From the NCBI GenBank assembly GCA_963666835.2, contig CAXXGO010000001.1, positions 1,600,001 to 1,664,000 of the forward strand: DNA of 64,000 nt, in the 5' to 3' direction. The number at the start of each line of letters is the position of its first letter. Positions within the stretch are counted from its first letter, which is position 1. Positions 1,663 to 56,743 of the stretch are shown piece after piece. The translations under genes and the position numbers were made by a program. The notes under the pieces are model-generated. The model did not search any database and had not been told where the DNA came from. It saw only the letters and a program-made list of their open reading frames with translations. The DNA is from Phycisphaerae bacterium. GTDB taxonomy: Bacteria; Planctomycetota; Phycisphaerae; UBA1845.

Positions 1663-3222
1663 TTACTCCAGCACTTGCCGAACGCAGTCGATTACGGTGC
1701 CGTCGACCCATTTGATTGCGGCCACGATCTTCTCGCCGAGCACCGGGGGGGCGGGCGGTCCGCCGCACAAGGCGTCGACCTCGGTCTTGATCTCCTCGAT
1801 GGATCGGATCGGCAGGCCCGAGCCCTTTACGGACTCGATCAGATCGGTCCGGCGGGGATTGATGGCGATACCGCGTTCTGTGACGATCACGTCGATCAAC
1901 TCGCCCGGTCCACACACGGTCGTCACGCGATCCACGATGACGGGGATCCGGTCGCGCATGGAAGGAATCGGCAGGATTACGCACTTGCCGGCCAGGCAGT
2001 TCTGCCAGCCACCGATGCCGTGCAGCAATCTGCCGTCCGAGTGGGTCACGACGTTGGCATTGAAGTGAACGTCGACTTCGGTGGCTCCCAACACGACGGC
2101 GTCGAGCATTGAGGCGAAGCAGCCCTTGCCGTGGAAGTTGTAGCTGGTGAACGGGCTGGTGTCCTGATGGCAGGGGTTCTCCCGCATGGAGCGTACACCG
2201 TCGAGATCGAAGGTCTGCCCGTCAAGGATGTAGTCGGCCAGACCCTCCTCGAGCATCTCGACCAGGTACTTGTTACTCCCCCCGCGAATGAAACGTGCCT
2301 TGATACCGGCTTCCTTCATCATCTCCTTGAGGTAGATGGCAAAGCCGAGCGACGTTCCCCCGGCACCGGCCTGGAACGAGAATCCATCCTTCATGATTCC
2401 GGAATCGCGTACGAACTGGGCGGTTAGCTCCGAGATCAGAAGGCGATCGGGACTCTTGGTGATCATCGTGGTCCCCGAAACGATTTTCTCCGGGTCCCCC
2501 ACGGAATCCATGACGACAACCTGATCCACGTTGTTGCCCTGGATCTGCCAGGGGATACACGGGAACGGAACAGGGTTGTCGGTGACGACGATTACATGGT
2601 CGGCGTAGATGGAGTCGGCCAGGGCGAACCCGAGCAGACCACACGCGGAAGGACCCGTCACGCCGTTGGCGTTGCCGAAGGCGTCGGCCGTGGGGGCGGC
2701 GATGACGGCGATGTCGATGTGGACTTCGCCGTCCTGAATGGCCTGCCAGCGCCCGCCGTGCGAGCGGAGCACGCCCATCCCGCGCATTCTTCCCGTTGCG
2801 CAGTAGTTGCCGAGCGGGCCGTTCATACTCCCCTCGATATGGTGGATAAGTCCACTTTCGAGGTGGTCGATGATCTCCGCTTGGCAAGGAAACGATGCGC
2901 TGGGGAACCAGCGCAGGTCCTTAACTCCCATCTGCGCGGCCGCCCGGAACACTTCGTTGGCGACTTTGTCGCCGTCGCGGAAATGGTGATGCGACGAGAT
3001 GGTCATTCCGTCGCGCAAACCCGCATTCTTCAGGGCCGTAGCTATGGAATCGACGATCTTGTTGCCATCTGCCGGATAGTCGGCGCAAGTACGAATGGAC
3101 GGGGCGGTTTTGTTCCCGGAAGGGCGGTACTTGCCGACGCCCATGAACGGGGTGGCCGGTCGCCCGTTGATTTCAGTAGGCACCATACGCCCGACGGCGT
3201 TTTCGATGAGTTTGTTAGTCAT
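1663..3222 (-). CDS. citF: Citrate lyase alpha subunit-like (acyl/CoA transferase)
   Basis: GLRDGMTISSHHHFRDGD, RSHGGR, IDIAVIAAPTADAFGNANG, FSFQAGAGG, DVIVTERGIAINPRR; start taken at MTNKL. Confidence 0.92.
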   Translation of the reverse strand: MTNKLIENAVGRMVPTEINGRPATPFMGVGKYRPSGNKTAPSIRTCADYPADGNKIVDSIATALKNAGLRDGMTISSHHHFRDGDKVANEVFRAAAQMGVKDLRWFPSASFPCQAEIIDHLESGLIHHIEGSMNGPLGNYCATGRMRGMGVLRSHGGRWQAIQDGEVHIDIAVIAAPTADAFGNANGVTGPSACGLLGFALADSIYADHVIVVTDNPVPFPCIPWQIQGNNVDQVVVMDSVGDPEKIVSGTTMITKSPDRLLISELTAQFVRDSGIMKDGFSFQAGAGGTSLGFAIYLKEMMKEAGIKARFIRGGSNKYLVEMLEEGLADYILDGQTFDLDGVRSMRENPCHQDTSPFTSYNFHGKGCFASMLDAVVLGATEVDVHFNANVVTHSDGRLLHGIGGWQNCLAGKCVILPIPSMRDRIPVIVDRVTTVCGPGELIDVIVTERGIAINPRRTDLIESVKGSGLPIRSIEEIKTEVDALCGGPPAPPVLGEKIVAAIKWVDGTVIDCVRQVLE

Positions 3223-3300
3223 TGCGTGTTTCCGTGGATAACGAAGCTTCAATCTTCAGCAACCGGCACTTCTCGTATGTGCCGTCGGCCCTTTCTTCGG

Positions 3301-4518
3301 CTAGTTGACTAACTTCATTGCCTTAGCTAGCTCTACCGTGTGTTGGGCGCGCTTTACCACCGGCGGATCGATCATCTTGCTGCCCAGCGATACTGCGGCC
3401 AGGCCCTTCTGCTGGGCTTCCTCGAAGGCGGCCACGATTCGTTGAGCCTTCTCCAACTCCGCCGCTGCCGGCGCGAAGGCCTCGTGGATGACCGCAATCT
3501 GCCGCGGGTGGATGCATCCCTTACCGTCAAAGCCGAGGGACTTGGCCTCCAATACGCTGGCTCGCAGGCCCTCCATATCCGCCACATCGGAATAAACCGT
3601 ATCGATCGGCTGCACGCGCGCCGCCCGCGCCGCGTTGACCACCTGGCAGCGAGCCCAGAAGCTCTCGCGGCCTTCGTCCGTTCGCTGCGTGCCGATGTCG
3701 GCTGTGTAATCTTCCAGGCCTATAGTCAAAGCGCAGACGTTGTCCGACGCAGTGGCGATCTCGTAAGCCCTGATGCACCCGAGAGCGCTTTCCACAATCG
3801 GCATCAAGAGCACCGTGCGGTCGATACCTTTGGCTTTCAGAATGCCCGCGATCTTCTCGTCGACTTGCCGCACCTGGTCGGGGTCTTCGACCTTCGGAAT
3901 CAGGATTACGTGAACATTATGCGGGGCGATGAAGTCGAGATCCTCGAGGCCGCGCCTGCCCTGGTTGATCCGAACCATCCGTTCGGCTCCATGGAAGTTC
4001 AGAGTTCGCAAGGCGTTACGAACCAACAGGCGGGCGGCGTCTTTCTCCGAAGGAGCCACACTGTCCTCCAGGTCGAGGATGACCCCGTCGGGACGGTGAA
4101 GCCCGGCGTTGATCATGAACTTCGATTCGTTGCCCGGCAGATAGAGCCGCGAGCGCCGAAAGCGGTTACGTTCCGTACCATACTCGGTACCGGGGGCGAA
4201 GTCGGGTATGTAGCCGTCCCCGACGTCAACTCCGGCGCGGCGAACGGCCGCTTCGACTCGCGCGGTGATAACAAACGGAAGAGCCCCGGTATCCTCGATC
4301 TCTACCTTGGCATTCTTTACGTTCAAGGCGTCCAGAACATCGCGAACCAACTTGCGAGTGACTTCGCCGTACATAGACTCGACCTTGGTTTTGAGATGCA
4401 GATCGATGCCCCCGGCTTCGGTCAGAGCGATCCGGACCCAGCAATCGGACCGGATATCCGGGCCGTAGCGACCCGCCTCGGCGGCTCCTGACGCGTTACA
4501 GTCTTTGGATGTCGTCAT
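3301..4518 (-). CDS. citE: Fusion of CitD-like (ACP, gamma) domain and CitE-like acyl-CoA lyase (beta)
   Basis: N-terminal ~95 aa resembles CitD (SDCWVRI..IDLHLKTKVESMYG..IEDTGALPFVITARVEAA); then RRSRLYLPGN, ILDLEDSVAP, LIPKVE, GFDGKGCIHPRQI, KMIDPPV. Confidence 0.88.
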   Translation of the reverse strand: MTTSKDCNASGAAEAGRYGPDIRSDCWVRIALTEAGGIDLHLKTKVESMYGEVTRKLVRDVLDALNVKNAKVEIEDTGALPFVITARVEAAVRRAGVDVGDGYIPDFAPGTEYGTERNRFRRSRLYLPGNESKFMINAGLHRPDGVILDLEDSVAPSEKDAARLLVRNALRTLNFHGAERMVRINQGRRGLEDLDFIAPHNVHVILIPKVEDPDQVRQVDEKIAGILKAKGIDRTVLLMPIVESALGCIRAYEIATASDNVCALTIGLEDYTADIGTQRTDEGRESFWARCQVVNAARAARVQPIDTVYSDVADMEGLRASVLEAKSLGFDGKGCIHPRQIAVIHEAFAPAAAELEKAQRIVAAFEEAQQKGLAAVSLGSKMIDPPVVKRAQHTVELAKAMKLVN

Positions 4519-4636
4519 TGTCGAAATTCCCGGTGTTCAATAGACAGTCATTAAGCTTGTTTCCCGGCGGGAGCGGCGATCGCCCGGCTACCGGATGATG
4601 ATGCCGCGATAGCCCGCGCGAATGCCGCCCGTCCGG

Positions 4637-5215
4637 CTACTCTATCAGCGTACCGTTCTCCATCATGACCAGCGGGTTGAAGGTCCCGAAATCCGCTTGG
4701 TGGATCAGCACCGTCTCGACCACCTGGGGACGACCGTCGCCCTCCTTCGCATGGCATGCGATGGTGTTGAGGGCTTTGTCCGGTAGACCGACCTCGTACG
4801 CTAAAGCCGTTCCGGAGATGGGGTGCCGCGCACACTTGCCGGAGAGGCTCTTGCGAAAACCCCCGTTCCCGTCCGGTTCGAACTCGAGCAACTTGCCGAC
4901 GTCGTGGAGCAGACCGCCGGCGAGAAGTCGGTCGAAGTCGATCTTATAAGGCATCTCGCGGTAGGCGCTTTCCTGTGCCTTGGCGAGTCCGAGCGCCCCC
5001 TCAGTGACCGCGATGGTGTGTTCGATGAAGTTCACTCCGCGCGTGTTGGTCAGAAGGGTAAACGGCATGGCCTTAAGATCATCGACGCTCTTCCAGCCGC
5101 CGCGCTCGCAGGCCAATACCCAGGCCTGCACCGTTTTGGCACTAAGGTCGGCGTCCTTGATTCGCTGGAGAATGCCTCCGAAGAGACCCTCAATGTCTTT
5201 GGCAGTAATCATCAT
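4637..5215 (-). CDS. HD-domain (HDIG-type) metal-dependent phosphohydrolase
   Basis: IEHT...LLHDVGK...HPISG...ACH...QADF pattern. Confidence 0.85.
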   Translation of the reverse strand: MMITAKDIEGLFGGILQRIKDADLSAKTVQAWVLACERGGWKSVDDLKAMPFTLLTNTRGVNFIEHTIAVTEGALGLAKAQESAYREMPYKIDFDRLLAGGLLHDVGKLLEFEPDGNGGFRKSLSGKCARHPISGTALAYEVGLPDKALNTIACHAKEGDGRPQVVETVLIHQADFGTFNPLVMMENGTLIE

Positions 5216-5273
5216 CTTACTCCGGGAGTTCTTTGCTCGTTGGGCGCCGTCGACCGGCGTCGCGCTGTCGGGC

Positions 5274-7259
5274 CTACCCGTTACCTCGATTCATCTCCGC
5301 CAGTTGGTCTCGAATGACTGCTTCGAACCCGCCCTTAACGACCAGTTCCTGAGCGATTTCGCCCAGCGGAGCGAAAGTGTACGTCTTGCCGTCGTATTCA
5401 ATTGCCGCGTTTACGAAATCCACCTTGGCGACTCGGCCGGTCCGAATGGTCGCGCTCTTATCGTCTGCGAATGCCTGCACGAGATCTTCTACCAGCTCCG
5501 GGCACTCTATCACGATATAACCGTTGTTGAAGGCGTTTCGCTTGTACGTCTGAGAATACGAACCGGCGATGACCATCTGCAGTCCGCGGTACTTCAGGGC
5601 GGTCGCGGCCTGTTCGCGCGACGACCCCGAGCCGAAGTTGTAGCCTCCGACCAACAGATCCCCCTCCTTGGCCAGCTCCTGGAACTTCGGGTCATAGTTC
5701 AACATGGCCTTGGAGCCCATTTCCGCCGGGGCAAGGTTGTCCTGATAGGTGAACTCCTTGCCGTAGATGCCGTCGGTGTTCATGTTGTCCTTCGGGACGA
5801 ACAGCAGCTCACCTTCGAGCGTCTTGGGGAACCCATCCAGAATCGTGGTTGCCTTGGATTCGGCTGGTGGTCTGGTCGCCGTACGTACCGTGCTCCCGCG
5901 CTTAAGGGCACTGCGCGATTCGTCCGCACTCATCCCACCCGGGGTCGGATCGGCAATCCTACCGGCGACCGCAGACGCCGCGACAACCGTCGGGCTGGCC
6001 AAGTACACTTGAGAATCCGGGGCGCCCATTCGCCCCTTGAAGTTCCGGTTGGTCGCGGAGATGCCGACCTGCCCACTGTCGAGCACCCCATCTCCCAGCC
6101 CGATGCACGGTCCGCACCCGGGTGGTAAGGCGATGGCCCCGGCGTCCAACAGAGTACCCCATGCTCCGGCTTGCCGGGCCTGCTCTTCAACCTCGCTGGA
6201 GGCGGCGGCAATGTAGAGCTTGACTCCGTCGGCAACACGTTTTCCGGCGATGACCTTGGCGGCGTCTACGAAGTCCTCCAGCCGCCCGTTCACACAACTG
6301 AGCAGGTACGCCTTATCGATCCTGACGTTGCGTTGCTCCATCTCCGGCAGCGGTACGATGGTCTTCACTTCGTTCGGCCCGGCCACGTGAGGAGTGACGG
6401 CCGCGAGGTCGAAGTCCAACTCCTTGGCATAGAAGGAATCGGCATCTGCCTGTGGTGCATCGGCGCTGATTCGTTCAACGATCTCGGCGGTCAGGCGGGG
6501 TTGGGCATCGCCGCGCTTCGCCATTACCTCTGCACGCTGGAGCAGGTAGCGGCGGGTGACGTCATCGAAGGGGAATACTCCCGCGAGGGCGCCCCATTCG
6601 GTACTCATGTTGGCTATGGCGATACGACCTTCCATGCTCAACTTGGCGATGCCGGGTCCGGCGAACTCCAGACAGCAGTTGAGCACTTCGTCGTTGTTGA
6701 AAGTGCCGATCAGCGCGATTACCACATCCTTGCCGCTGACGCCGGCACGAGGTTCACCCGTCAGGTTCACCCGAACGACGTCCGGTACTTGCCACCACGT
6801 CCGGCCTGTGGCCCAGATTGCGGCCGCATCGGTCCGGACCACGGGAGTCCCCAGCGCGGCCATCGCCCCGTATATATTGGAGTGAGAATCCGAGCCCACG
6901 ACGAACGTGCCGGGCAGGGCGAAGCCTTCTTCGATCATGATCTGATGTCCGATCCCACGACCGACCGGATAGAAGGCTACGCCGTTCTTCTTGGCGAACG
7001 CTTCGATCTTGGCATACTTCGCCAGATTCGCCTCGCTTTTGTTCTGGATGTCGTGGTCCAGGGCATACATCGGTTGTTCGGGATGGCACACGCGCTGCGC
7101 GCCCATACTCTCGAATTTGGGAATAACCGCGCCGGTATTGTCATGTGTCATGACGTGGGCGGGGCGGATGGACAGAAAGTCACCGCTACGAACGGTGTGT
7201 CCTTCCGGAAGCCCGACGGCGAAACGCTGGGCGATCTTCTCAACCAGATTGGATCCCAT
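5274..7259 (-). CDS. lysF: Homoaconitase, fungal Lys4/LysF type, single chain
   Basis: N-terminus NLVEKIAQRFAVGLPEG..SGDFLSIRP.HVMTHDN, DHDIQNKSEANLAKY, GRGIGHQIMIEEG, TPVVRTDAAAIWATGRTWWQVP matches fungal Lys4 as I recall it; Fe-S Cys in LSCVN and CGPCIG; swivel domain NFGSGSSREQA. Confidence 0.85.
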   Translation of the reverse strand: MGSNLVEKIAQRFAVGLPEGHTVRSGDFLSIRPAHVMTHDNTGAVIPKFESMGAQRVCHPEQPMYALDHDIQNKSEANLAKYAKIEAFAKKNGVAFYPVGRGIGHQIMIEEGFALPGTFVVGSDSHSNIYGAMAALGTPVVRTDAAAIWATGRTWWQVPDVVRVNLTGEPRAGVSGKDVVIALIGTFNNDEVLNCCLEFAGPGIAKLSMEGRIAIANMSTEWGALAGVFPFDDVTRRYLLQRAEVMAKRGDAQPRLTAEIVERISADAPQADADSFYAKELDFDLAAVTPHVAGPNEVKTIVPLPEMEQRNVRIDKAYLLSCVNGRLEDFVDAAKVIAGKRVADGVKLYIAAASSEVEEQARQAGAWGTLLDAGAIALPPGCGPCIGLGDGVLDSGQVGISATNRNFKGRMGAPDSQVYLASPTVVAASAVAGRIADPTPGGMSADESRSALKRGSTVRTATRPPAESKATTILDGFPKTLEGELLFVPKDNMNTDGIYGKEFTYQDNLAPAEMGSKAMLNYDPKFQELAKEGDLLVGGYNFGSGSSREQAATALKYRGLQMVIAGSYSQTYKRNAFNNGYIVIECPELVEDLVQAFADDKSATIRTGRVAKVDFVNAAIEYDGKTYTFAPLGEIAQELVVKGGFEAVIRDQLAEMNRGNG

Positions 7260-7262
7260 CTG

Positions 7263-9080
7263 TCAGTCCTTTCCACCGGCTAAAAGCCCGCCGCGCCGAT
7301 AGATGGCCAACTGGGCTTCCGGAAATGCAAGACCTTGAATTCTCTCAGTGCCGGTCGTTCGCGTTACGGTTCCGGACTCGAAATCCACTTCGAGATCCTC
7401 GCCGTTTTCGATACTAGTGCTCAAGGCGTCGGCGCAAAGGACGGCGAGTCCGGCGTTGATGGCGTTACGTTCGTAAATAGCGCCGAACGACTCCGCCACG
7501 ATCACCGAGACGCCGAGGGCTTTGAAGCAGTCGACGGCCTGCTGTCGCGAACTTCCGCACCCGAAGTTCTTTCCTGTCACGATAATGTCACCCGGCTTGA
7601 CCTTCCTAGAGAAATCCTCCCACCCGTCGAGGTTGCCGAAGGCATACTGCTTCATCTCCTCCGGGTCGGTCACGGTCAGGTGCCGGTTGTGGTAGATCAT
7701 ATCTGTATCGATATTGTCCTGCCGGATCACCCACGTCCGACCTTGGACCTTCGTTGGGTGGGCGGAGTCCCCGGCCGCCGAGCGTTTGCCCGGCGCGGCG
7801 CCGGCTGCCGCAGGCTTCTCGAACTGCACGGGTTGGTCGGGGATTTTGTCGGCCGTGGTGATTACCCCGGCTACCGCCGAGGCTGCCGCCGTCTGCGGCG
7901 AGGCAAGGTACACGAGCCCCTTGCCCTGCTTGCCCGGGAAGTTCCGATTGCCCGTGCTGACGGTGGTCTCTCCGGGGCCGTTCTGACCGATTTGCCCCGC
8001 GGCGCATCCCGCGCATCCCGCGTTGCCCAACAAGGCCCCGGCATCTTTGAATACCTTAATCAGCCCTTCATCGAGCAGCCGCCGCCAGACGACATCCGTG
8101 GCCGGGACGATCTTCAGCACTACCCCCGGAGCCACTGTTCGGCCCGTGAGAACGTCCGCCGCCGCGGCGAGGTCCTCGTACCGCCCATTGGTGCATGACC
8201 CGATGAACACCGAGCCCACCTTGGTGCCGGCAGCTTCCGTAACCGGGACGACGTCGTCCGGACGTCCGGGCCGGGCGATCATCGGTCCGACGCCGCCGAT
8301 ATCGACGACAACCTCGTCCGAATACACGGCGTCCGGATCCGCGAAGACCGGAGTGACGTCACGTCCCGCTGCCTTGCGGCAGTAATCGAGGACTTTTTGA
8401 TTGGGGGGGAACAGCATGATGATCCCGCCCATTTCCGTACACATTGACGCCAGCGTGGCGCGCCCGGCCAGATCGAGCTGGTCGACATAGGGGCCATAGA
8501 ACTCCGCGGCCAGTCCGAGCAGTCCGTTAGCGCCGAAATGGCCAACGAGTGCCAGAGTGACATCCTTCGGCGCGGCGCCTTCGGCCGGCATGCCCTTCAG
8601 GGTGACCTTGATGGTCTTGGGGACCTTGAACCAGACCGTCCCATGGGCAAACGCGTGGGCGATGTCCTGATCGCCCATCCCCTGACCAAATGCGCCGATC
8701 GCGCCCAGGATGTTGGCGTGGGAGTCCGTTGAAACGAGGGTGCCGCCCGGGCCCACCAACCCAAGATCGATGGCTAAGTGCGTTCCGATCCCCGCGTCGA
8801 TGTCGTGTACGGTGATTCCGTGCTCCCGGGCGAAGACGCGGCAGAGCTGCTGGTTCTTGGCATAGTTCTGATCCGAACCGCCCGGGTTGCAGTCGAAGGT
8901 GAAGAAGGTTTGCGCCGGTTCGGCCACCGGGAGCTCGTTGTCCCGGATGTTCTTGACTACGTTGGCGCCTCCGAAATCGCGGGCGATCCTAGCGTCGATA
9001 GCCAGATCGACCACTTCTCCGGCTTTCGCCGGTTTTGCGGAGTGTTCGGTGATGATCTTCTCGATTAACGTCTGTCCCAT
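7263..9080 (-). CDS. Aconitase-family dehydratase, LeuC/HacA-like and LeuD/HacB-like subunits fused
   Basis: DSH, FIGSCTNGRYEDL, CAGCAAG, STGNRNFPGKQG, YLASP; C-terminal NIDTDMI, NFGCGSSRQQA. Confidence 0.88.
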   Translation of the reverse strand: MGQTLIEKIITEHSAKPAKAGEVVDLAIDARIARDFGGANVVKNIRDNELPVAEPAQTFFTFDCNPGGSDQNYAKNQQLCRVFAREHGITVHDIDAGIGTHLAIDLGLVGPGGTLVSTDSHANILGAIGAFGQGMGDQDIAHAFAHGTVWFKVPKTIKVTLKGMPAEGAAPKDVTLALVGHFGANGLLGLAAEFYGPYVDQLDLAGRATLASMCTEMGGIIMLFPPNQKVLDYCRKAAGRDVTPVFADPDAVYSDEVVVDIGGVGPMIARPGRPDDVVPVTEAAGTKVGSVFIGSCTNGRYEDLAAAADVLTGRTVAPGVVLKIVPATDVVWRRLLDEGLIKVFKDAGALLGNAGCAGCAAGQIGQNGPGETTVSTGNRNFPGKQGKGLVYLASPQTAAASAVAGVITTADKIPDQPVQFEKPAAAGAAPGKRSAAGDSAHPTKVQGRTWVIRQDNIDTDMIYHNRHLTVTDPEEMKQYAFGNLDGWEDFSRKVKPGDIIVTGKNFGCGSSRQQAVDCFKALGVSVIVAESFGAIYERNAINAGLAVLCADALSTSIENGEDLEVDFESGTVTRTTGTERIQGLAFPEAQLAIYRRGGLLAGGKD

Positions 9081-9177
9081 GATGTTGCCTCGCTTGGCTG
9101 GACGGCCTTTCGATCCGTCAAGTCGTGGACGGGTGGTGTATTACCCGACGCCGACCACGGTTTGTTCCTTCTTTCGC

Positions 9178-10359
9178 TCAGAGCTTCGCGATGATTGCGT
9201 CGATCATCTGCGTCGTTGTCGCGGCCCCCTGGTCGAGCACTTCCTGGCAGCCGGTAAGCCGCATCATGTCGTAAGTGCGGGTCTTGCCTTCCGCGATGAC
9301 CGCCGCCGTTGCTTTGCGGATTCGGTCGGCCGTCTCCGTTTCGTTGATGTGGTCCAGCATCATGCAGGCCGATAGGACCATGGCGATCGGGTTGACGATC
9401 GGAGGGTCGAGGTTCTCATATTTCGGGGCGGAGCCGTGGGTCGGCTCGAACACGGCAACTTCCTTGCCGATGTTGGCGCTGCAGGCGAAACCGAGTCCGC
9501 CGACCAGTCCGGCGAACCCGTCGGAGACGATGTCTCCGAACATGTTGCCACTGACCAGGACTCCATAGTCCTCCGGGTTCTTGGTCAGCCACATCATCTG
9601 GGCGTCGATGTTCGTTTCCCAAAGGGCGATTCCCGGATAGTCCTGTGCGGCGAGTTTGGCCTCAGCGCGCATCATGCCGGAAGTCTCGCGGATGACGTTG
9701 GGCTTCTCGCAGACGGTTACGGACTTGTAGCCGAACTTCTTGGCGTAGGCGAAGGCCTCGCGCACGATTCGACGGCAGGCCTTGCGGGTGAAGATCCGCG
9801 TCGATATCGCGAGATCCTCACTGGGGCAGTCCTTGAACCTGGCCATCCTCGGGTGCGTCTCCAGGGCGCTGCGGACGTTTGCAGGCGGGTTGGTCCATTC
9901 GACCCCGCCGTAGAGTCCCTCAGTGTTCTGCCGGAAGATCACGGCGTCGACCTTGGGCTCCACAAACCCGTCACCGTCGCGCCGAATGAAGTTCAGCGGG
10001 TTTCCGGGGAATGACTGGCACGGGCGGATGCTTATATCCAGGTCGAAGTGCTGCCGCAGGCCGACGATCGGACTGCTGTAAACAAAACCCTTGTCCCTCA
10101 GTTTCGGCGAAAGCTCTGCGGCGGCTTGGTCCTTCGGCTTGGACGTGATCGCCCCGAACAGGCCAATCTTGTGCTCTTCCAGGAGCTTGATCGTCCGCTC
10201 GGGCAGGGCGTTTCCTTCGTTGATCCAGAACTCCCATCCGATGTCCGCGTGAACGTAATCCGCTTCGAAGCCGGCGGTCTCCAAGACCTGAATGGTCCCC
10301 GGCAGAACCACCTTCCCGATGCCGTCGCCCGGCATGCTCACAATCGTCCTTTTTGCCAC
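9178..10359 (-). CDS. Isocitrate/isopropylmalate dehydrogenase family, probably homoisocitrate dehydrogenase
   Basis: PGDGIG, RQNTEGLYGGVEW, EKPNV, NMFGDIVSD, FEPTHGSAP, NPIAMVLS; adjacent to homoaconitase; GTG start with GGGGAG SD. Confidence 0.85.
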   Translation of the reverse strand: MAKRTIVSMPGDGIGKVVLPGTIQVLETAGFEADYVHADIGWEFWINEGNALPERTIKLLEEHKIGLFGAITSKPKDQAAAELSPKLRDKGFVYSSPIVGLRQHFDLDISIRPCQSFPGNPLNFIRRDGDGFVEPKVDAVIFRQNTEGLYGGVEWTNPPANVRSALETHPRMARFKDCPSEDLAISTRIFTRKACRRIVREAFAYAKKFGYKSVTVCEKPNVIRETSGMMRAEAKLAAQDYPGIALWETNIDAQMMWLTKNPEDYGVLVSGNMFGDIVSDGFAGLVGGLGFACSANIGKEVAVFEPTHGSAPKYENLDPPIVNPIAMVLSACMMLDHINETETADRIRKATAAVIAEGKTRTYDMMRLTGCQEVLDQGAATTTQMIDAIIAKL

Positions 10360-12994: not shown

Positions 12995-13093
12995 TTTGAT
13001 ATACCGGCGTTCGGTGCGCGATGATACGCGCGCCGGGTTTAACGATGAAAACCCGTCGGGTTTTGAGTGTTTTCGAAAGAGGAGACAGGCGAT

Positions 13094-14728
13094 ATGGCGG
13101 TCAAGCAGTTGGCCTACGAACAGGAGGCGCGGCAGGCCCTGTGGAGCGGGGTCGAGAAGTTGGCCAGTGCGGTCAAATCGACGCTCGGTCCTCGCGGCCG
13201 GAATGCTGTCATCGACAAGGGGTGGGGCGGTCCGACCGTTACGAAGGACGGCGTTACGGTGGCCGAGGAAGTCGATCTCGAAGACAAGTACGAGAATATG
13301 GGGGCTCAGCTTGTCAAAGAGGCCGCGAGCAAGACGAGTGAAGTGGCCGGTGACGGCACCACCACGGCGACCGTCCTGGCGGAAGCGATTTTTCGGCAGG
13401 GGCTCAAGAACGTAGCGGCGGGGGCCAGCGGAAACGCGATCAACCGGGGGATTGTGAAGGCCGTCGATGCCGTTATTGAGGCGGTCAAGGGGATGTCCCG
13501 TCCGGTACGGGTCAACAAACGCGAGGACATCGTCAATGTCGCGAAGATCTCGGCCAACAATGACGAGACGATCGGGAAGCTGTTGGCGGATTGCTTCGAC
13601 AAGGTGGGCAAAGACGGCGTAATCACTGTCGAGGAAGGCAAGACGGCCGATACGGTCATCGAGGTCGTGGAAGGGATGCAGTTCGACCGGGGGTTCCTTT
13701 CGCCGCACTTTGTGACGGATCAGGATGCCGTCGAGTGCGCATTGGACAGGCCGCTGATTCTCATTCATGAGGAGAAGATCAGCAGTGTCCCCAAGTTGGT
13801 TCCACTGCTGGAGAAGGTGGCCAAGGCGAAGAAACCGCTGTTGATCATCGCCGAGGACGTTGAAGGCGAGGTTCTGGCGACGTTAGTCGTGAACAAACTC
13901 CGGGGCATCCTGGATGTCTGTGCGGTCAAGGCGCCGGGTTACGGCGATCGCCGCAAGGCTATGCTGGAGGATATTGCGGCGCTGACTGGGGCGACGGCGA
14001 TAATGAAGGACCTCGGCTTGGATCTCGAGAAGGTCTCAATCAAGGATCTCGGGCAGGCCAAGAAGGTACGCATCGACTCGAATAACACGACCATCGTCGA
14101 GGGGGCCGGCTCGACAGCCGCTATCAAAGAGCGGATCACGCAAATCGGAGCGGAGATCGAATCTACAACTTCTGACTACGATCGGGAGAAGCTCGAGGAG
14201 CGTCGGGCCAAGCTGGTCGGCGGTGTCGCCCAGATCAACGTTGGGGCGGCTACCGAAACCGAACTTAAGGAAAAGAAGGCTCGGATCGAGGACGCTTTGC
14301 ACGCTACCCGGGCGGCTATTGAAGAGGGTATCGTCGTCGGTGGCGGAGTTGCCCTGCTGCGGGCGACCGAAGCTCTTGATGGGCTGAAGTTGAAGGGTGA
14401 CGAGCGTACCGGAGCGGATATCGTTCGCGCGGCGCTGGAGGCCCCCTTACGGCAGATCGCGGCGAACGCCGGGCTCAACCCCGGAGTGGTTCTGCACAAA
14501 GTCCGGGCGGGCACCGGGACGTTCGGCTTCAACGCTGAGACCGGCGAGTATACTGACCTGATGAAGGATGGCGTGATCGACCCCACCAAGGTCGTGCGTG
14601 CCGCTCTGGAGAACGGTAGTAGCGTTGCCCGCATTCTGCTCAGTGCGGATGTGTGCATTTCCGAGAAGCCGTCGGATGACGCTGACGCCGAAGCCGGGCC
14701 CGGTATGGGCGACGAAATGGACTACTAG
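13094..14728 (+). CDS. groEL: Chaperonin GroEL, paralog 1
   Basis: [52 protein letters not shown]. Confidence 0.97.
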
Positions 14729-14840
14729 AAGACGGCGTTTCGCTACGCCGGGAGGAGTTGGGCAGAGACTCAACCGAACCAGGAAAGAACGAGGCGGCCG
14801 AGTCGACCTCGATCCAATAATTGACGGAGACAACCCAATC

Positions 14841-15161
14841 ATGGCAACCACAACCTCATGTAAGACGAAGATTAAGTTCCGCCCGATGGATGATCGCGTG
14901 CTGGTGCAGCCCGGCGAAGCCGAGGAGACCACCGTCGGTGGTATCATCCTGCCCGATACCGCCCGGGAAAAGCCGCAGCGCGGAGTGATTGTGGCGATGG
15001 GGCCGGGCAAGCTGCTCGACAGCGGAAAACGCGGCGAGATGTGTGTCAAGCTTGGTGACGAAGTGTTCTACGGGAAGTACTCGGGAACGGACGTCGAATT
15101 CGGCGGCGAGAAGCTCGTTGTGATCCGTGAGAACGATATTCTGGCGATTGTGGACAAGTAA
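14841..15161 (+). CDS. groES: Co-chaperonin GroES
   Basis: FRPMDDRVLV, GGIILPDTAREKPQRG, GKYSGT, IRENDILA. Confidence 0.96.
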   Translation: MATTTSCKTKIKFRPMDDRVLVQPGEAEETTVGGIILPDTAREKPQRGVIVAMGPGKLLDSGKRGEMCVKLGDEVFYGKYSGTDVEFGGEKLVVIRENDILAIVDK

Positions 15162-15216
15162 CCAGACAATCCGGCCACGGCGATTGTCGTGCCGAGCATG
15201 AAGATAGGAGTTGGCT

Positions 15217-16827
<1,611 letters not shown>

Positions 16828-50317: not shown

Positions 50318-53300
50318 ATGAAATCGCGCAACGAAGGTACGCAGTGGGCACGTTTCCCGGCGGTGGTCTCCGTCATGGCGATCCTCGCGGTTCTGTTGTC
50401 AGGGAGTGTGTCCCAGGCGGTAGAGCGCAAGTTCGTGGTCACGCTGGCCTATTCGCCCAAGGCGTTCATGAACGACGGCACCGGTGGTCAACCCGAGGGA
50501 GGGCTGTACAACGCGGAGGAGATCTACAAGGACTACTTCGACCGCGTCAACCCCGGTATCGATTCGTTCGTCGAGTATTGGGAGGAGATCAGCTACGGGG
50601 ATGTGGTCATTACCGGTGACGTGGAGGGGTGGGTGGCTCTGCCCTGGGCGTTTGAGCCGGAAGCTCCGTATGGCGGTGAACGATCGTCCCCGGAGGACTT
50701 CATCAACCTCTACGACAACTTGTCAACCGTGTGCTCGCCGGGCACGCCGTTGATGCACATCGAGAACATGGTTCCCCTGCATTACAGCTACGGTGCGGGC
50801 GAGCCGTTTTGCGATTGTGTCAATGCGGAGGGCGAGGACGGTGTGTACGGTCCGGGAGACTGCGGGGCGCTGATCACCGTCAACTACAATGGCGAACTCG
50901 ACGGTTGGGTACCTTCGGAGCCGTTGGCCGACTTCGACGCCGTTGGGGTGAATGTGTGGACTCCCGGTGAGCGTTTCGTGGACGTCGACGAGGATGGCCG
51001 TTGGGACGGTCTCGACGAGAAGAACGACATGATGTGCCACAGCTCGTTGGGCTGTCAGAATGTCTGCAGTGGAATGATATGCAGCGACCACTCCGGCTAC
51101 TGCACCACCGACGCGGATTGTCTCGGGGACGCCTACTGCAAGCGCGGATCGCTGATCGGAGCTCCGGCCTGCGGCAGTTTTTGTTCAGGAACGGCGGTCC
51201 CATGCACCGGCGAGATAGCCGGGGAGTGCGCTGAATTCGGGACGGCATCGCAGTGCGTCGTGGTCGGCTGCGGTCTCATGGAGACTTGTGGGGACGACCG
51301 GGTCTGTTCTGACGGATCGGGGTCGTGTGATCCGGACGCCGACTGTCCACCGGGAGAGTTCTGTGACGCCGTTACTTTGCGATGCAGTGAGGCGGATACC
51401 GCATGCGATCCGAATGTCGATTGCCCGAGCGGGGCGAGTTGCGTTGGCGCGGGGCCTCGCGGATGCGACTATCCGGGCTGCGGCGACCTCGCCGCAGCCG
51501 CCGTGGACTGGAATGAAGACGGCGTATATCGGAATCCCGACGATTGTGTGATAGTCCCTCAGATCTCGTGCGTTGTTGATGACGATTGTGGGACGCATGG
51601 ACGCTGCAATACCGATCTGAACACCTGTGCGCCGGTCGTCTACTGTACACGGGATTCGGATTGTCCCGGTACGGGGAACCAGTGTCTGACCGAGGGTTAC
51701 GACCCGCCGGTGTGCGATCTCGGGCGGATCGGCTACCCAGTGCTTGAGGGTATGAACGCCGTGAGTCTGCCGGATTGCTGTGATGCGAACGCTGAGTCTA
51801 TGGAGGATTTCGCTCAGTGTAATACAGATGGCCACCCGATCATCTGTGACATTCACCCTACTTATCCGCAATGCGATCCGAGGCCGGAGGGCATTGTCTG
51901 CGGTGAGCCGAGGTACGCCTGTGAATTCCATGACGTTGACGCCGACGACGTGATGGACGTAACCGAGCCGTTTGAGGATTTCATCATCCGTTGGGAGCCT
52001 TCCGGGGGATGGTCCGGAGGTGTGTGGGTCCCGGTGGATCGCGAGTACATCAAGAATAACTATCCCGGTAATGTCCCGGCTCTGCTGGCGCGCGTAGGGA
52101 ACGGCTACTTCAATCCCGGGGACGTTTTCTACGATACTGCGGGGGATGTCAGCACGAAGATGATGCAGGAGACCGGGGGCGCCCGTTATCTGATGACGCG
52201 GGTTCCGAAGCCTGGCAGCGGGAGGTATGCCACCGTTGGTGAGCAGGCTTGGTTCGATAACTGGTGGACTGCGCGCTACGGGACGTCGGCTCCGCCATGG
52301 CCGGGCGGCACCGGACAATATCCGTCGCCCAATGCGCCGGTGATGGCTCCGTTTGATCCGGCTAATCCGTTGCCCCCATCACTGCAGGGGGACGACTTGC
52401 CGACGAGTCGGTGGTTTAGGGCGAACAAGGGAGGGTTTTCCGGAGATGGTGACGGCGGCACACCGGCTCCGCCGTTCCAGCACTACAACGCGGGCGGAGA
52501 TAATTGGGGTAACAGTATTCTCCCGGATGCCGCTTATGGATACTACGACGGCTGGGTCGAGCATGACGATCTTCCGTCCTCTAAATACCATCTTCAGGGT
52601 GACAAGCGTTTCGGCGAGATAACGTCGCCGCTCCGCGACACGTTCGAGTACCTGGGCCACGAGTACCCCGCGATTTCCGGGCATGATTTCGGCCCCCACG
52701 ACCCGAACCGTCTGGGTTCGAACGGCGACGGTTTCGGGGTAGCAGCCGGCCCCGAGGCGGTCAAGATCTTCGGCGACAAGGGATACGACGCCGGTAATCT
52801 GGCCATTGTAGAGTGGTTGACTTGGAGACGCGATGGGCAGAGCCGCACGTTGGGCACGCAGTGGTCTATCGATAATCACATCGGGGACGGCGTCAGCGGC
52901 TATCATCCGTACGCCAGCCCGAACTCGCAGCATCAGCCGTCCGGACGATGCAGCTCCTCGACCAAGGTGGCATGTTTGGTCGACGGAGCCTGCCCTGTTG
53001 GAGAGACCTGCGTGCGGCCGACGACGCCGATGGGTTTCGCGGACTACAACCTCGACGGGATGATCGATCAGGGTGAGGTTCGGCCGGCCGGCTCAGCGAA
53101 CTACTCGGTGGATAGTGTGCTTGGTACACCCAACGACGGAACTAATTCTGATTACCCATTCAACCGTCGGAGAATGATGGAAGACGTGGTGGAGGCTCTG
53201 GATCCCTCGGTTGACTGGGATGACTACGTAGACCTGAACATGTGGTCGACGGTCTCCGGTATCATTCTCGTGCCGCCGGATTCATACAACGATGCCAACC

Positions 53301-56300
53301 GGTTCCCCACGGCGCCGTCGTTCTATCCGATTCACACGGAGGATTCCCTCGCCGCCGCCTTCCACGACTTGGTGATCTGCCAGGACTGCAGGAGTTTTCC
53401 GTCGGCTATCGCATACGCCGCGCATGAGTACATGCACACGTGGGAGCAGTATCCGGACCTGTATGACTACGACCTTTTCACCGGCATGATCGTGAACTGT
53501 CCGATCGGTTTATGGGATATCATGGCGGGAACTCGCGGCGACGGAGCGATGGTCCATCCGACGCCGGTGCTTAAGGATTCGTCAGGGTGGATCAACCCGA
53601 TCGATCTACGGACCGTCCTCACGCCGGGGGTGGAGACGTCACTGACATTGCCACCGGCGGAGTTTGACCGTGATGGGTATTTCTTCCTGGAGAACGCCGA
53701 GCGTCCCGGGGAAGCCTACTGGTTCTGGTCCGCCGGAGAGGGCTTCGACGAGAACCACCCCGGTAACGGTGGGATGTTGATCATGGCGACCAACGACGTG
53801 TACAACCCGGCCAATCCGGATGCCGTTGCTGAGCAGCAGCGCGAAGCTCCATACGGTTACCGAATCGTCCAGGCTGACGGAGAGGGCGATCTGGAGGCTT
53901 GTAGCTCGACCGGTAACCGGGGGGACGGCGGGGACATTTGGCCGGGCACCAGCGGGAATACCGAGTTCAACTTCGATACGGTGCCGGCGGCGGTATGGGA
54001 TGCGCAGAACCGGTGGACCGGACTCAACATCAGTAATATCGAGCCGGACGGAGAAGGATCGGTGCGGCTGACCTTGTCCTGGACTCCGACCAATCTCCCG
54101 GGCGTCGAGTTCGTTGATCCGCCGGGCGGCGCCTCGGTGGGGTCCATTTACCAGGTGCGCTATGAGGCCACTGATGTGTTCGGTGGCACGACGATCCACC
54201 TGTACTATACGACGGACGAGAACGACATCACGGTAAAGAACCCGCCGGCGACGGACTCGAACTACATCGGCACGCGGGTCAAGGGGACGCCGGGTACGAT
54301 TCAGACGAGCATGGATTGGGACATCAGTCAGGTGCCGGACGGGCAGTATCATGTGTTCGCCAAGCTGGTTCCCGGTCAGGGGGTCGGCGGAACGGAGATC
54401 AAGCACACGGAGCCGTATCCTGGCCGCAACAACGCCGGGACCGGGGCGCTGACCATTAGGAAGGTCGACGTTTCATCAGCCATCGACGCCGCTGCGAGGG
54501 CGGAAACGTGGATCATTGAGTGCGTTGATCCGGCTGGCGAAGACTGGCAGGTGTACAGCTCTCTGACCCAGCCGGAGCCCGAGAATGATGAGGCGTACCC
54601 GTACGAACTGGCTGAGACGTGTCCCAAGAGCGATCCGGATGACCCAGATTGTGTGCAGTACGAGTACACCTCCGCCAACGGGGCGGTGACTTTTCTGATC
54701 ACTCTGGGCGATGAGCCCTTCTGTTTAGGGGACCGGTTCGTCTTCAACACGACGGGCGTATCTGAAGTGAGCAAATCGGTTACGGTTGAGGATCACCGGA
54801 TCTATGCAAACCCGGTGGCGGTCATCGATGCTTCGCCGCTGTCCGGACTTCCGCCCCTGAAGGTGGACTTCGACGGCCGCGATTCGTACGACCCGGACGG
54901 GCTCCCGCTGACTTACCGTTGGAATTTCGGTGATGGTGCTACGTCGACCGGATCTCCGGTCAGCCACACCTTCGATGATGCCGGCGTGTTCACCGTGGTC
55001 CTGAGGGTGGCGAACAGTCTCGGCCGGTTCGGCGAGACTGCGGTTGACATCAATGTGATCAACAATCGGCCAAGCGCCGTGATCGTTGCGAAGCCGGTCA
55101 GCGGCCCCGAGAACTTAACAGTGTACTTCGACGGGTCCGGATCGAACGATCTGGAGACCCCGGCGGACCAGTTGATCTACCAGTGGGATTTCGGGGACGG
55201 CAAAGCCGCAAACACGCAGGGCAACCCGGGGGTCTTCATAACTACCGAGCATTTCTATTCCAAGGACGAAGATGGCGTGAAGTGCACGCAGACGAATCCC
55301 TGCAAGTTCAATGCGGCGCTGACCGTCACGGATACTGGTGGGAAGAGCCACACCGCGACCACGGAGATCTGGGTGGGTAATACCAACCCGGTGCCGAGTG
55401 TGTCGGTGTCCCGGACGGAGGGCTCGGATCCGCTCGACATCGTGTTCAACGCGATTAACTCATACGATGCGGACGGTGACGACCTCAAGATCACGTGGTT
55501 CTGGGGCGATGGATCCCAGGATGGTCCGTATCCCGTCACCGGTGCACCCGGCGTGACGAGTGGCGACGTAGTCCATACGTATCGGCTGCCGACCGGGGAG
55601 ACCTCGTACTCCTTCACGCCGACGGCGTTACTTACCGACGGGTTTGCCTCGGTGACTTGGACCGGTTCGAAGATCACGGTTACGGAGCCGAAGGCGGGGT
55701 CGTCCGACCCCCGCGCGATCTTCACGATCACACCCGAGCCGCCGTTAGAGGTTGGGGCCGAGTTTACCGCCGATGCGTCACTGTCGTTCGATCGACCGAC
55801 GGGCGATCCTAATAGCAAGATCGCGTCGTACTCGTGGGACTTCGGAGACGGTACGGCGGTTGTCAGCGGGAAGACCGTTAAGCACACGTATGTAGAACCT
55901 GGCACCTATGTGATCGTGTTGGAAGTCAAGGACGCGGCGAGTCCGGTGAACAAGGGCCGGACGTCTCAGACGGTGCTGGTCGTGGGCGAGCTGCCCGATG
56001 ACTCGGATGATGCCGATGGGAACGAGCCGCCCGACGTGGTTCTGCTGGCGAATCCGAAGGAGGGTTATGAGGGCTTTACCGAGTTCTCGTTTGACGGGTC
56101 CGGATCGAGCGATCCCGATGACGATGACCTGACCTTCGAGTGGATGTTCGGTGACGGAGAGTCTGCGGACGGGGCTAAGGCAACGCACGTCTATGCGGAA
56201 GCGGGCAACTATACGGTCCGGCTGACCGTTACGGATGAGCACAACGCATCGGCTTACGATACGCAGACTATTGTCGTTAAATCCAATGTCGGCAACCGGG

Positions 56301-56743
56301 CTCCGCAAGCGATCATCGGAACGGGTGTGCGATCCATTCAGGCCGGGGAGAAGATCGAGTTCAACGGACAGAACTCGTACGATCCGGATAATGATGTCCT
56401 GGATTTCGTCTGGAAGTTCAGCCAGGACGATGTGGTGATTGATACTCTGACCGGAGGTGTGGTGGCCAGGACCTTCCAGAGTGAGGGAGCCTATCAGGTG
56501 GTCTTGACCGTGTCTGATGGCCGGGGCGGCACCGACACCACGCAGGCGGTCAATATTCAGGTCTCGGCTAAGGTCGAAGCACCGGATTCCGGCGATGATC
56601 CCGGAACAGGACAGACAACCCCGGATCCCAGCTACACTCAGCGTCCCACGAGCGTTTGCGGCTTGGGCATGGTGCTGAGCTTGTTCGGCTCTTTGGCCGG
56701 GCTGTCGGTGATGCGGGTGACACGCCGGCGGACCGGGTTCTAG
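50318..56743 (+). CDS. Giant secreted M6 (immune inhibitor A)-like zinc metalloprotease with Cys-rich inserts, six PKD domains and a C-terminal membrane anchor
   Basis: Signal peptide; SFVEYWEEISYG..GWV; AHEYMHTW..PDLYDY..IGLWDIMAG; repeats with WxFGDG; terminal CGLG + hydrophobic stretch + RRR. Confidence 0.82.
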   Translation: MKSRNEGTQWARFPAVVSVMAILAVLLSGSVSQAVERKFVVTLAYSPKAFMNDGTGGQPEGGLYNAEEIYKDYFDRVNPGIDSFVEYWEEISYGDVVITGDVEGWVALPWAFEPEAPYGGERSSPEDFINLYDNLSTVCSPGTPLMHIENMVPLHYSYGAGEPFCDCVNAEGEDGVYGPGDCGALITVNYNGELDGWVPSEPLADFDAVGVNVWTPGERFVDVDEDGRWDGLDEKNDMMCHSSLGCQNVCSGMICSDHSGYCTTDADCLGDAYCKRGSLIGAPACGSFCSGTAVPCTGEIAGECAEFGTASQCVVVGCGLMETCGDDRVCSDGSGSCDPDADCPPGEFCDAVTLRCSEADTACDPNVDCPSGASCVGAGPRGCDYPGCGDLAAAAVDWNEDGVYRNPDDCVIVPQISCVVDDDCGTHGRCNTDLNTCAPVVYCTRDSDCPGTGNQCLTEGYDPPVCDLGRIGYPVLEGMNAVSLPDCCDANAESMEDFAQCNTDGHPIICDIHPTYPQCDPRPEGIVCGEPRYACEFHDVDADDVMDVTEPFEDFIIRWEPSGGWSGGVWVPVDREYIKNNYPGNVPALLARVGNGYFNPGDVFYDTAGDVSTKMMQETGGARYLMTRVPKPGSGRYATVGEQAWFDNWWTARYGTSAPPWPGGTGQYPSPNAPVMAPFDPANPLPPSLQGDDLPTSRWFRANKGGFSGDGDGGTPAPPFQHYNAGGDNWGNSILPDAAYGYYDGWVEHDDLPSSKYHLQGDKRFGEITSPLRDTFEYLGHEYPAISGHDFGPHDPNRLGSNGDGFGVAAGPEAVKIFGDKGYDAGNLAIVEWLTWRRDGQSRTLGTQWSIDNHIGDGVSGYHPYASPNSQHQPSGRCSSSTKVACLVDGACPVGETCVRPTTPMGFADYNLDGMIDQGEVRPAGSANYSVDSVLGTPNDGTNSDYPFNRRRMMEDVVEALDPSVDWDDYVDLNMWSTVSGIILVPPDSYNDANRFPTAPSFYPIHTEDSLAAAFHDLVICQDCRSFPSAIAYAAHEYMHTWEQYPDLYDYDLFTGMIVNCPIGLWDIMAGTRGDGAMVHPTPVLKDSSGWINPIDLRTVLTPGVETSLTLPPAEFDRDGYFFLENAERPGEAYWFWSAGEGFDENHPGNGGMLIMATNDVYNPANPDAVAEQQREAPYGYRIVQADGEGDLEACSSTGNRGDGGDIWPGTSGNTEFNFDTVPAAVWDAQNRWTGLNISNIEPDGEGSVRLTLSWTPTNLPGVEFVDPPGGASVGSIYQVRYEATDVFGGTTIHLYYTTDENDITVKNPPATDSNYIGTRVKGTPGTIQTSMDWDISQVPDGQYHVFAKLVPGQGVGGTEIKHTEPYPGRNNAGTGALTIRKVDVSSAIDAAARAETWIIECVDPAGEDWQVYSSLTQPEPENDEAYPYELAETCPKSDPDDPDCVQYEYTSANGAVTFLITLGDEPFCLGDRFVFNTTGVSEVSKSVTVEDHRIYANPVAVIDASPLSGLPPLKVDFDGRDSYDPDGLPLTYRWNFGDGATSTGSPVSHTFDDAGVFTVVLRVANSLGRFGETAVDINVINNRPSAVIVAKPVSGPENLTVYFDGSGSNDLETPADQLIYQWDFGDGKAANTQGNPGVFITTEHFYSKDEDGVKCTQTNPCKFNAALTVTDTGGKSHTATTEIWVGNTNPVPSVSVSRTEGSDPLDIVFNAINSYDADGDDLKITWFWGDGSQDGPYPVTGAPGVTSGDVVHTYRLPTGETSYSFTPTALLTDGFASVTWTGSKITVTEPKAGSSDPRAIFTITPEPPLEVGAEFTADASLSFDRPTGDPNSKIASYSWDFGDGTAVVSGKTVKHTYVEPGTYVIVLEVKDAASPVNKGRTSQTVLVVGELPDDSDDADGNEPPDVVLLANPKEGYEGFTEFSFDGSGSSDPDDDDLTFEWMFGDGESADGAKATHVYAEAGNYTVRLTVTDEHNASAYDTQTIVVKSNVGNRAPQAIIGTGVRSIQAGEKIEFNGQNSYDPDNDVLDFVWKFSQDDVVIDTLTGGVVARTFQSEGAYQVVLTVSDGRGGTDTTQAVNIQVSAKVEAPDSGDDPGTGQTTPDPSYTQRPTSVCGLGMVLSLFGSLAGLSVMRVTRRRTGF

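Follow-up and report, generated by a model that had tools for sequence, protein, structure and literature searches.

A rare hybrid of a conserved bacterial module, combining a Lys4-type homoaconitase, a histidine-less aconitase homologue and a citrate-lyase-type pair, and a tentative route through (S)-homocitrate

Why does a bacterium with no complete aminoadipate lysine pathway encode a fungal-type homoaconitase, and why does that gene stand among citrate lyase homologues? The question is raised by six genes in a 64,000-nucleotide stretch of a Phycisphaerae bacterium (contig CAXXGO010000001.1, positions 1,600,001 to 1,664,000; the window hereafter), which encode a dehydrogenase, a fused aconitase-family enzyme called acn2 here, a Lys4-like homoaconitase, an HD protein, a CitD-CitE fusion and CitF. 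A sequence-only reading had described these genes as tightly packed and co-oriented, and we found six intact, contiguous open reading frames on the minus strand at 1663..10359, separated, from the dehydrogenase end to citF, by gaps of 97, 3, 58, 118 and 48 nt; families were named by Pfam and NCBIfam profile scans against model cut-offs (Table 1). The same reading had noted that the window lacks homocitrate synthase, LysW and CitC, CitG or CitX, and these absences extend to the whole genome, which is 92% complete, so that every absence given for it is to be read with 8% possibly missing. We conclude that the operon is a real, conserved and undescribed module. We propose tentatively, as somewhat short of an even chance, that it would convert 2-oxoadipate through homoisocitrate, homoaconitate and (S)-homocitrate into 2-oxoglutarate and acetyl or acetate units, fed by lysine catabolism.

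The gene order is reproduced outside this assembly. A public contig spanning window positions 2758-9598 shows no differences to the window, although it may stem from the source sample, and a contig from a second study, spanning 3908-9598, shows 15. As the contigs of these two studies cross the junctions between acn2, the homoaconitase gene, the HD gene and citDE, the order is not a mis-assembly, and together with a second locus of the same composition (L109) they rule out an assembly chimera; the GC content of the operon is also in line with that of the genome. Among the best 80 of 594 confirmed GTDB loci carrying the Lys4-like gene, many of them on short contigs, an HD gene was present in 54, the dehydrogenase in 54, a PrpD-family gene in 46 and citDE with citF in 32. 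All six genes of this arrangement, which we call type A (Lys4, dehydrogenase, HD, citDE, citF and PrpD-family), occurred together in 28 of the 80, so their linkage is not due to chance, and the conservation on which the earlier pathway proposal depended is borne out. A citrate-synthase-family/ATP-citrate-lyase-like end was found in 12 of these loci, never with citDE or citF; this alternative end consists of a succinyl-CoA-ligase-like beta subunit and an alpha subunit that carries a fused citryl-CoA lyase domain scoring above its model cut-off.

None of these 80 loci contains acn2. Among the best 80 of 568 metagenome loci carrying acn2, no prpD was found, and 48 had the HD gene, 31 a HacAB-like partner enzyme and 28 the dehydrogenase, with citDE or citF in 17, the ATP/Ccl-type end in 14 and both ends in one locus. 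L109, which is 88-94% identical to the window, was the only one with a Lys4-type enzyme. Type A thus combines PrpD with Lys4, type B combines acn2 with a HacAB-like partner, and the window is a hybrid of acn2 and Lys4, with L109 the single other case among the 160 loci. The genes, their families and residues, their linkage and these replacements we regard as established.

The surveys also returned short operons in which an HD gene, citF or an ACL-like gene, a Ccl-like gene and acn2 follow one another with no dehydrogenase or second hydro-lyase (L165, L153, L163). Copies of the module lie beside anaerobic benzoyl-CoA pathway and 2-oxoacid oxidoreductase genes (L114:3069-17864), a 2-hydroxyacyl-CoA dehydratase and its activator (L015:4041-6121), and an oxidoreductase and a thiolase (L016:3-5479).

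On which substrate series would the module act? The Lys4-like protein scores 744 against a cut-off of 529.9 with the homoaconitase model TIGR00139, has the DH, GHQ and DSH motifs, three cysteines and SSR, and finds its closest named relatives in Phycisphaerae/Planctomycetota records; from its equivalog score and canonical active site we predict a Lys4-type homoaconitase. The dehydrogenase falls under every NCBIfam cut-off (best AksF2, 270 vs 540). The four best PDB matches of its N-terminal half (residues 1-160) are all homoisocitrate dehydrogenases, and it has a substrate-loop motif at 94-103 in common with the Schizosaccharomyces pombe enzyme 3TY3. After HGSAP, 85 of 86 dehydrogenase homologues carry the NADP-type Lys-Tyr and not the Asp-Ile of Thermus homoisocitrate dehydrogenase; according to the accessible part of PMC5397045, this pair marks NADP use in Escherichia coli isocitrate dehydrogenase (IDH). 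The protein appears closest to homoisocitrate dehydrogenases and is predicted to use NADP. The homoaconitase score and the dehydrogenase motif support the earlier claim that the substrates belong to the homo-series, which we consider likely.

The sequence-only reading had listed acn2 as a second dehydratase of the aconitase family, and had missed that it is not an ordinary aconitase and that it takes the place of a PrpD-family gene. acn2 has the Fe-S cysteines Cys296, Cys356 and Cys359, DSH at 119-121, NRN at 378-380 and SSR at 510-512, and in its homologues C296, C356, C359 and S510-S511-R512 are invariant, so that the cluster ligands and the Ser642 equivalent are kept. It carries Cys64 in place of the catalytic His, along with Arg34, Ser212 and Gln513. 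With D100-H101 of pig aconitase as the reference, the His101 equivalent is Cys in 77 and Thr in 8 of the 85 locus proteins that cover this position, and Cys in 117 and Thr in 3 of 120 database homologues, two sets that overlap and include the window's own acn2. The general-acid Asp-His pair is therefore Asp-Cys or Asp-Thr in every acn2 homologue compared, whereas the His is kept in all 92 Lys4-like and all 33 HacAB-like partner enzymes. Further fixed changes are Arg34, Thr100-His101, Ser212 and Gln513, where the Lys4-like and partner enzymes are canonical; the mapping of His147 is ambiguous by a one-residue shift. In mitochondrial aconitase, Ser642 acts as the base and His101 protonates the leaving hydroxyl (PMC8184944, in the portion available). 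The closest solved relatives of acn2 are Methanocaldococcus IPMI/HacAB structures (4KP1, 4KP2, 3VBA; E 6e-72). In a quick tree of 87 rows (84 drawn at random from 219 locus proteins, two window proteins and E. coli LeuC), acn2 formed a separate clade with support 100, and the type-B HacAB-like partners joined the Lys4 clade with support 93, below the level starred in that tree.

Which half-reaction would such an enzyme perform? In a comparison set of 41 genomes, made up of the window genome and 40 relatives, CitF was present in eight, all of which also encode a close Lys4-like protein. In all seven CitF-positive relatives the cluster includes a second PrpD-family gene, at the place held by acn2 in the window, whereas the window genome has only the family-wide PrpD paralogue, sited outside the operon. 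In FastTree phylogenies, the window CitF nests among these PrpD-type relatives (11-row clade, support 99) and the dehydrogenase is nearest to the same relatives with weaker support. As acn2 occupies the slot of the relatives' PrpD and its type-B partner groups with Lys4, acn2 would carry out the PrpD step: it most simply has probably replaced PrpD, and the HacAB-like partner would correspond to Lys4.

Stereochemistry points the same way. Citrate-lyase-type enzymes act on (3S)-citryl-CoA, and homocitrate synthase makes (R)-homocitrate. By the Cahn-Ingold-Prelog rules, the geometry of CitE applied to 2-oxoglutarate would plausibly give (S)-homocitrate, so that the CitE and PrpD geometries together suggest the (S) form and not the (R) form, a point that the sequence-only reading had missed. 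Joining a CitE-type lyase to cis-homoaconitate would call for PrpD-like regiochemistry, which is the role that PrpD or acn2 would fill; with citrate, which is prochiral, an ordinary aconitase would suffice. In the available parts of the sources, PrpD dehydrates towards the acyl-CoA-derived arm and aconitases act on the oxoacid-derived arm (PMC5690661, PMC3556520), and fungal Lys4 is limited to the interconversion of homoaconitate and homoisocitrate, a second enzyme being required (PMC3556520).

The cleavage end resembles citrate lyase in part. CitF passes the citrate lyase model TIGR01584 (502.3 vs 501.45) and matches PDB entries 2HJ0 and 1XR4; its start may be ATG 3222 and not TTG 3252, because the Streptococcus mutans CitF chain aligns from there. 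CitE stays below its equivalog cut-off (TIGR01588, 281.1 vs 443.4), which makes it a family match only. At the column of E. coli CitD Ser14, which we take to be the prosthetic-group attachment site, 52 sequences have Arg (47), Lys (2), Ala, Pro or Gly and never Ser, although a Ser one position beyond this column in 50 of the 52 leaves a small doubt on the loss of the carrier. CitC, CitG and CitX were each absent from all five CitF-positive genomes searched (92-98% complete), with a positive E. coli control. CitF and CitE can, when isolated, act on CoA esters. As there is no carrier serine at Ser14 and CitC, CitG and CitX were not found, the lyase is probably free of acyl carrier protein (ACP) and would use free CoA. 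We do not count the operon as an ACP-dependent citrate lyase system (CitDEF with CitC, CitG and CitX). The sequence-only reading had missed that the ACP domain lacks its attachment serine.

Taken together, the operon would be a one-carbon-longer counterpart of the citrate-cleaving segment of the reductive tricarboxylic acid (TCA) cycle, operating mainly towards cleavage, a direction that we think somewhat the more probable if the substrates are of the homo-series. The dehydrogenase would carboxylate 2-oxoadipate with CO2 and NADPH to homoisocitrate, the Lys4-type enzyme would dehydrate this to cis-homoaconitate, and acn2 (in relatives the PrpD-like protein) would add water back to give (S)-homocitrate, the mirror image of the (R) compound made in biosynthesis. 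CitF would load CoA from acetyl-CoA or another acyl-CoA, and CitE would split (3S)-homocitryl-CoA into 2-oxoglutarate and acetyl-CoA, with free CoA, not the vestigial ACP, as carrier. 2-Oxoadipate would come from lysine by the saccharopine route, whose amino acceptor would be regenerated as the product 2-oxoglutarate, and in carriers of LysW the mirror-image homocitrates would hold breakdown and biosynthetic fluxes apart.

Genes for the supply of 2-oxoadipate are present. The window genome (G000) encodes piperideine-6-carboxylate (P6C) dehydrogenase and an adjacent pair of lysine-ketoglutarate reductase (LKR)-like and saccharopine dehydrogenase (SDH)-like genes (C6:65843-68559, locus L209), also found in several relatives; the proteins are 42% and 51% identical to the pair of locus L127, and no NCBIfam model matched, so that we presume these names from sequence likeness. 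The module has lysine-catabolic neighbours in L051 (lysine 6-transaminase and P6C dehydrogenase), L127 and L164 (LKR and SDH homologues), L162 (LKR) and L040. Lysine 6-transaminase was above cut-off in none of five genomes.

Several points weigh against this proposal. Lysine-catabolic neighbours are few among the 160 loci (SDH 2, LKR 3, P6C dehydrogenase 2, lysine transaminase 1). P6C dehydrogenase occurs in all eight CitF-positive genomes yet also in 18 of 33 other relatives, and in 19 of 33 GTDB carriers but in none of eight Acidobacteria operon carriers tested. A simpler exit for 2-oxoadipate exists, as 2-oxoglutarate dehydrogenase E1 is encoded in 43 of 76 operon-carrier genomes searched and a glutaryl-CoA-dehydrogenase-like gene, with 2-oxoacid oxidoreductases, in the window genome; the co-occurrence of P6C dehydrogenase or of E1 does not tell the direction readings apart. 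NADP use leaves the direction unfixed. The lysA family is missing from 9 of 15 Lys4-like carriers, the window genome included, against 1 of 26 other relatives, a count in which kin are not independent. The operon PrpD of the relatives is a distant family member (TIGR02330, 73 vs 458), with IDS epimerase and cis-aconitate decarboxylase as its best PDB matches, and the (3S) specificity of CitE may not hold for the window's paralogue. Moreover, citrate synthase was not found in the window genome, and its acnA is a broken 5' remnant of about 300 codons (C6:350389-351440; 70% identical to a relative's AcnA), so that in this genome the operon may act on citrate as well as, or in place of, the homo-series. 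The broadest form of the proposal, a widespread CO2-fixing lysine degradation via (S)-homocitrate that uses a PrpD-like or histidine-less aconitase (a new catalytic type acting on a mirror-image substrate) and an ACP-free lyase pair, apart from (R)-homocitrate biosynthesis, is doubtful as a whole.

The same homo-series chemistry could run oxidatively or in both directions, with CitE condensing acetyl-CoA and 2-oxoglutarate, CitF saving the thioester, and 2-oxoadipate going to lysine or glutaryl-CoA; we consider this unlikely. The lysA absences would fit it, as would the at least 54% identical glutaryl-CoA-dehydrogenase-like genes that adjoin the module in four loci, and by analogy with citrate the overall reaction would lie near equilibrium. 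In seven carriers of citDE/citF, the fetched stretches show LysW-LysX-Y-Z-J operons and neither a homoaconitase nor a dehydrogenase, two steps that the module may supply. However, five of the seven already have a synthase-like gene, below model cut-offs, in or at these lys genes, and so need no lyase to act as a synthase. The lyase and transferase do stand at the step between homocitrate and 2-oxoglutarate, as the sequence-only reading proposed, while its view of them as a substitute for homocitrate synthase is less supported. The window genome, moreover, gave no HMGL-like match for homocitrate synthase, and neither LysW nor a Lys2-type reductase scoring above cut-off was found in it (for the reductase, none in five genomes, this one among them), which leaves 2-aminoadipate with no known way to lysine. 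Its P6C dehydrogenase is the catabolic enzyme, DapB is present in all eight CitF-positive genomes, and leuA, ilvI and leuCD are also missing from the window genome (as is sucA), consistent with amino-acid scavenging. A RimK match in this genome was rejected as a lys gene, since it lies outside any lys cluster.

Two observations concern these lysine genes. A 1419-aa protein at G000 C6:3998-8257 has an N-terminal reductase-like domain, is not Lys2 and has similar-sized counterparts in all five genomes searched. LysW lysine operons of Ignavibacteria and of genome G013 contain a gene for a protein of about 211 aa that begins Met-Cys-Arg (L222:2376-3011, L225:2201-2845, L227:2470-3105, L235:2968-3609), a start that we take to be Ntn-hydrolase-like; the one such gene scanned matched no NCBIfam model at 1e-20. 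These four stretches showed no lysK, whereas L224 has a true LysK, and the protein is a candidate alternative LysW-lysine hydrolase. Acidobacteria have stand-alone LysW-like zinc-ribbon genes (L229-L234, L236, L237; E about 1e-10), and the eight fetched stretches show no neighbouring lys genes.

It is improbable that the operon is a citrate branch, in which an ACP-less citrate lyase, two half-aconitases and an NADP isocitrate dehydrogenase would link acetate and oxaloacetate with 2-oxoglutarate. The operon holds the only intact aconitase-family and citrate-lyase genes of a genome in which citrate synthase, prpC and an intact acnA were not found, CitF exceeds its citrate lyase cut-off, and L165 offers a dehydrogenase-less HD-CitF-Ccl-acn2 operon. 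The genome is, however, 92% complete and keeps a separate, ordinary NADP-IDH elsewhere. Citrate synthase is present in four CitF-positive relatives and AcnA-sized matches in six of seven, so citrate has its own enzymes there, beside the module. Prochiral citrate would call for no PrpD-like or remodelled enzyme, and the Lys4 equivalog score and homoisocitrate-type motif argue for the longer substrate.

Another substituted citrate, longer, methyl-branched or formed from a different 2-oxoacid and acyl-CoA, has a similarly low probability of being the true substrate. The dehydrogenase and CitE lie under every equivalog cut-off, no characterised enzyme is close to acn2 or to the PrpD paralogue, the role of the HD protein is unexplained, and neighbours vary, such as the benzoyl-CoA-pathway and 2-oxoacid oxidoreductase genes in L114. 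Against this stand the wide margin over the Lys4 model and the fact that the module lies, repeatedly and independently, beside genes of both lysine routes. A plain methylcitrate cycle we reject, since prpB and prpC gave no tblastn match in the genome and 2-methylisocitrate, a tertiary alcohol, cannot be oxidised by this dehydrogenase family.

The HD protein accompanies every version of the module. Its predicted model (pLDDT 96.5) gave a single fold match at E<=0.001, YhaM (E 2.4e-4, 16% identity); it has no PDB sequence match, and its Atlas clusters carry only automatic YhaM/HD names. The metal-site residues H66, D105, H131, H155, H172 and D175 are invariant, and the H...HD...D motif is complete in the window protein, whereas the His of HD is Ala, Ile, Cys or Leu in 80 of 110 homologues. 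A role in repair, such as opening homocitrate lactone, is a guess and an improbable one.

A promoter scan gave no sigma-70-like site and terminator-like matches at chance level, and an Rfam scan of the window gave no match, hence no lysine riboswitch that would indicate regulation. Downstream of citF, positions 1220-1450 hold a repeated element with imperfect inverted repeats, many variant copies and very high summed depth in public contigs. Elsewhere in the window, a groEL-groES-groEL-like arrangement, presumably two chaperonin copies, lies at 13067-16827, a third copy seems to sit at L202:7904, and 50318-56743 encodes a 2141-aa open reading frame with a signal-peptide-like start.

Table 1. 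Genes of the operon, with positions in the window.
Feature	Position	Strand	Length and models
Beta-decarboxylating dehydrogenase, homoisocitrate-dehydrogenase-like, NADP-type motif	9178..10359	-	393 aa; PF00180
acn2, fused large and small aconitase-family (LeuC/D-type) hydro-lyase, remodelled active site	7263..9080	-	605 aa; PF00330+PF00694
Lys4-like fungal-type homoaconitase	5274..7259	-	661 aa; TIGR00139 744 bits, cut-off 529.9
Small HD-fold protein, constant companion of the module	4637..5215	-	192 aa; PF01966
CitD-like domain fused to CitE-like acyl-CoA C-C lyase	3301..4518	-	405 aa; PF06857+PF03328
CitF-like CoA/ACP transferase	1663..3252	-	529 aa (TTG) or 519 aa (ATG 3222); PF04223, TIGR01584

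If the proposed cleavage of (S)-homocitrate is correct, the module would be a new central-metabolic route, with a CO2-fixing step in heterotrophs, in lineages abundant in soil, sediment and the sea (Acidobacteriota, Gemmatimonadota, Verrucomicrobiota, Ignavibacteria, Marinimicrobia and Planctomycetota), and would account for a "fungal" homoaconitase in bacteria that lack a lysine pathway to match it. This route can be tested through the hybrid, as it couples two unrelated enzyme families at one step and predicts the half-reaction and enantiomer handled by the histidine-less aconitase. In annotation, genes of the module can be mis-read as citrate lyase, leuCD or prpD. In the literature searched (mostly open-access, supplements excluded) we found no paper describing the module, and the accessible part of PMC11237513 mentions the relevant terms only separately.

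How does the module compare with known systems? The fungal upper alpha-aminoadipate pathway, as covered by the available part of PMC3556520, likewise has a Lys4-type enzyme, two hydro-lyases per isomerisation and a homoisocitrate-dehydrogenase-like enzyme. It uses homocitrate synthase, whereas the window has a lyase and a CoA-transferase; the second hydro-lyase of the module is PrpD-like or histidine-less, its dehydrogenase is NADP-type, and it would probably run in the opposite direction and on the opposite enantiomer. Citrate lyase CitDEF (EC 4.1.3.6) is alike in its adjacent CitF, CitE and CitD-like domains, but in the module CitD is fused to CitE, Ser14 is replaced, CitC, CitG and CitX are missing from the five genomes, and the pair is exchangeable with an ATP-citrate-lyase-like pair and set among dehydratases and a dehydrogenase. 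In the 2-methylcitrate cycle (PMC5690661, from the part available), PrpD is similarly swapped for an Fe-S aconitase-family enzyme, AcnD with PrpF, beside an acyl-CoA adduct, and a second aconitase performs the other half-step; the operon differs in having no PrpC, PrpB or PrpF, in the rebuilt active site of the replacing enzyme and in the dehydrogenase at its end. Methanocaldococcus IPMI/HacAB matches acn2 in the three Fe-S cysteines and the catalytic serine, whereas acn2 is a fusion with Cys in the catalytic His position and four other fixed changes. The citrate-cleaving segment of the reductive TCA cycle (IDH, aconitase, and ATP-citrate lyase or Ccs/Ccl) has the same order of reaction types, and an ACL/Ccl-like version of the module exists; the substrates proposed for the module are one carbon longer, and its carriers are heterotrophs that keep TCA enzymes of their own.

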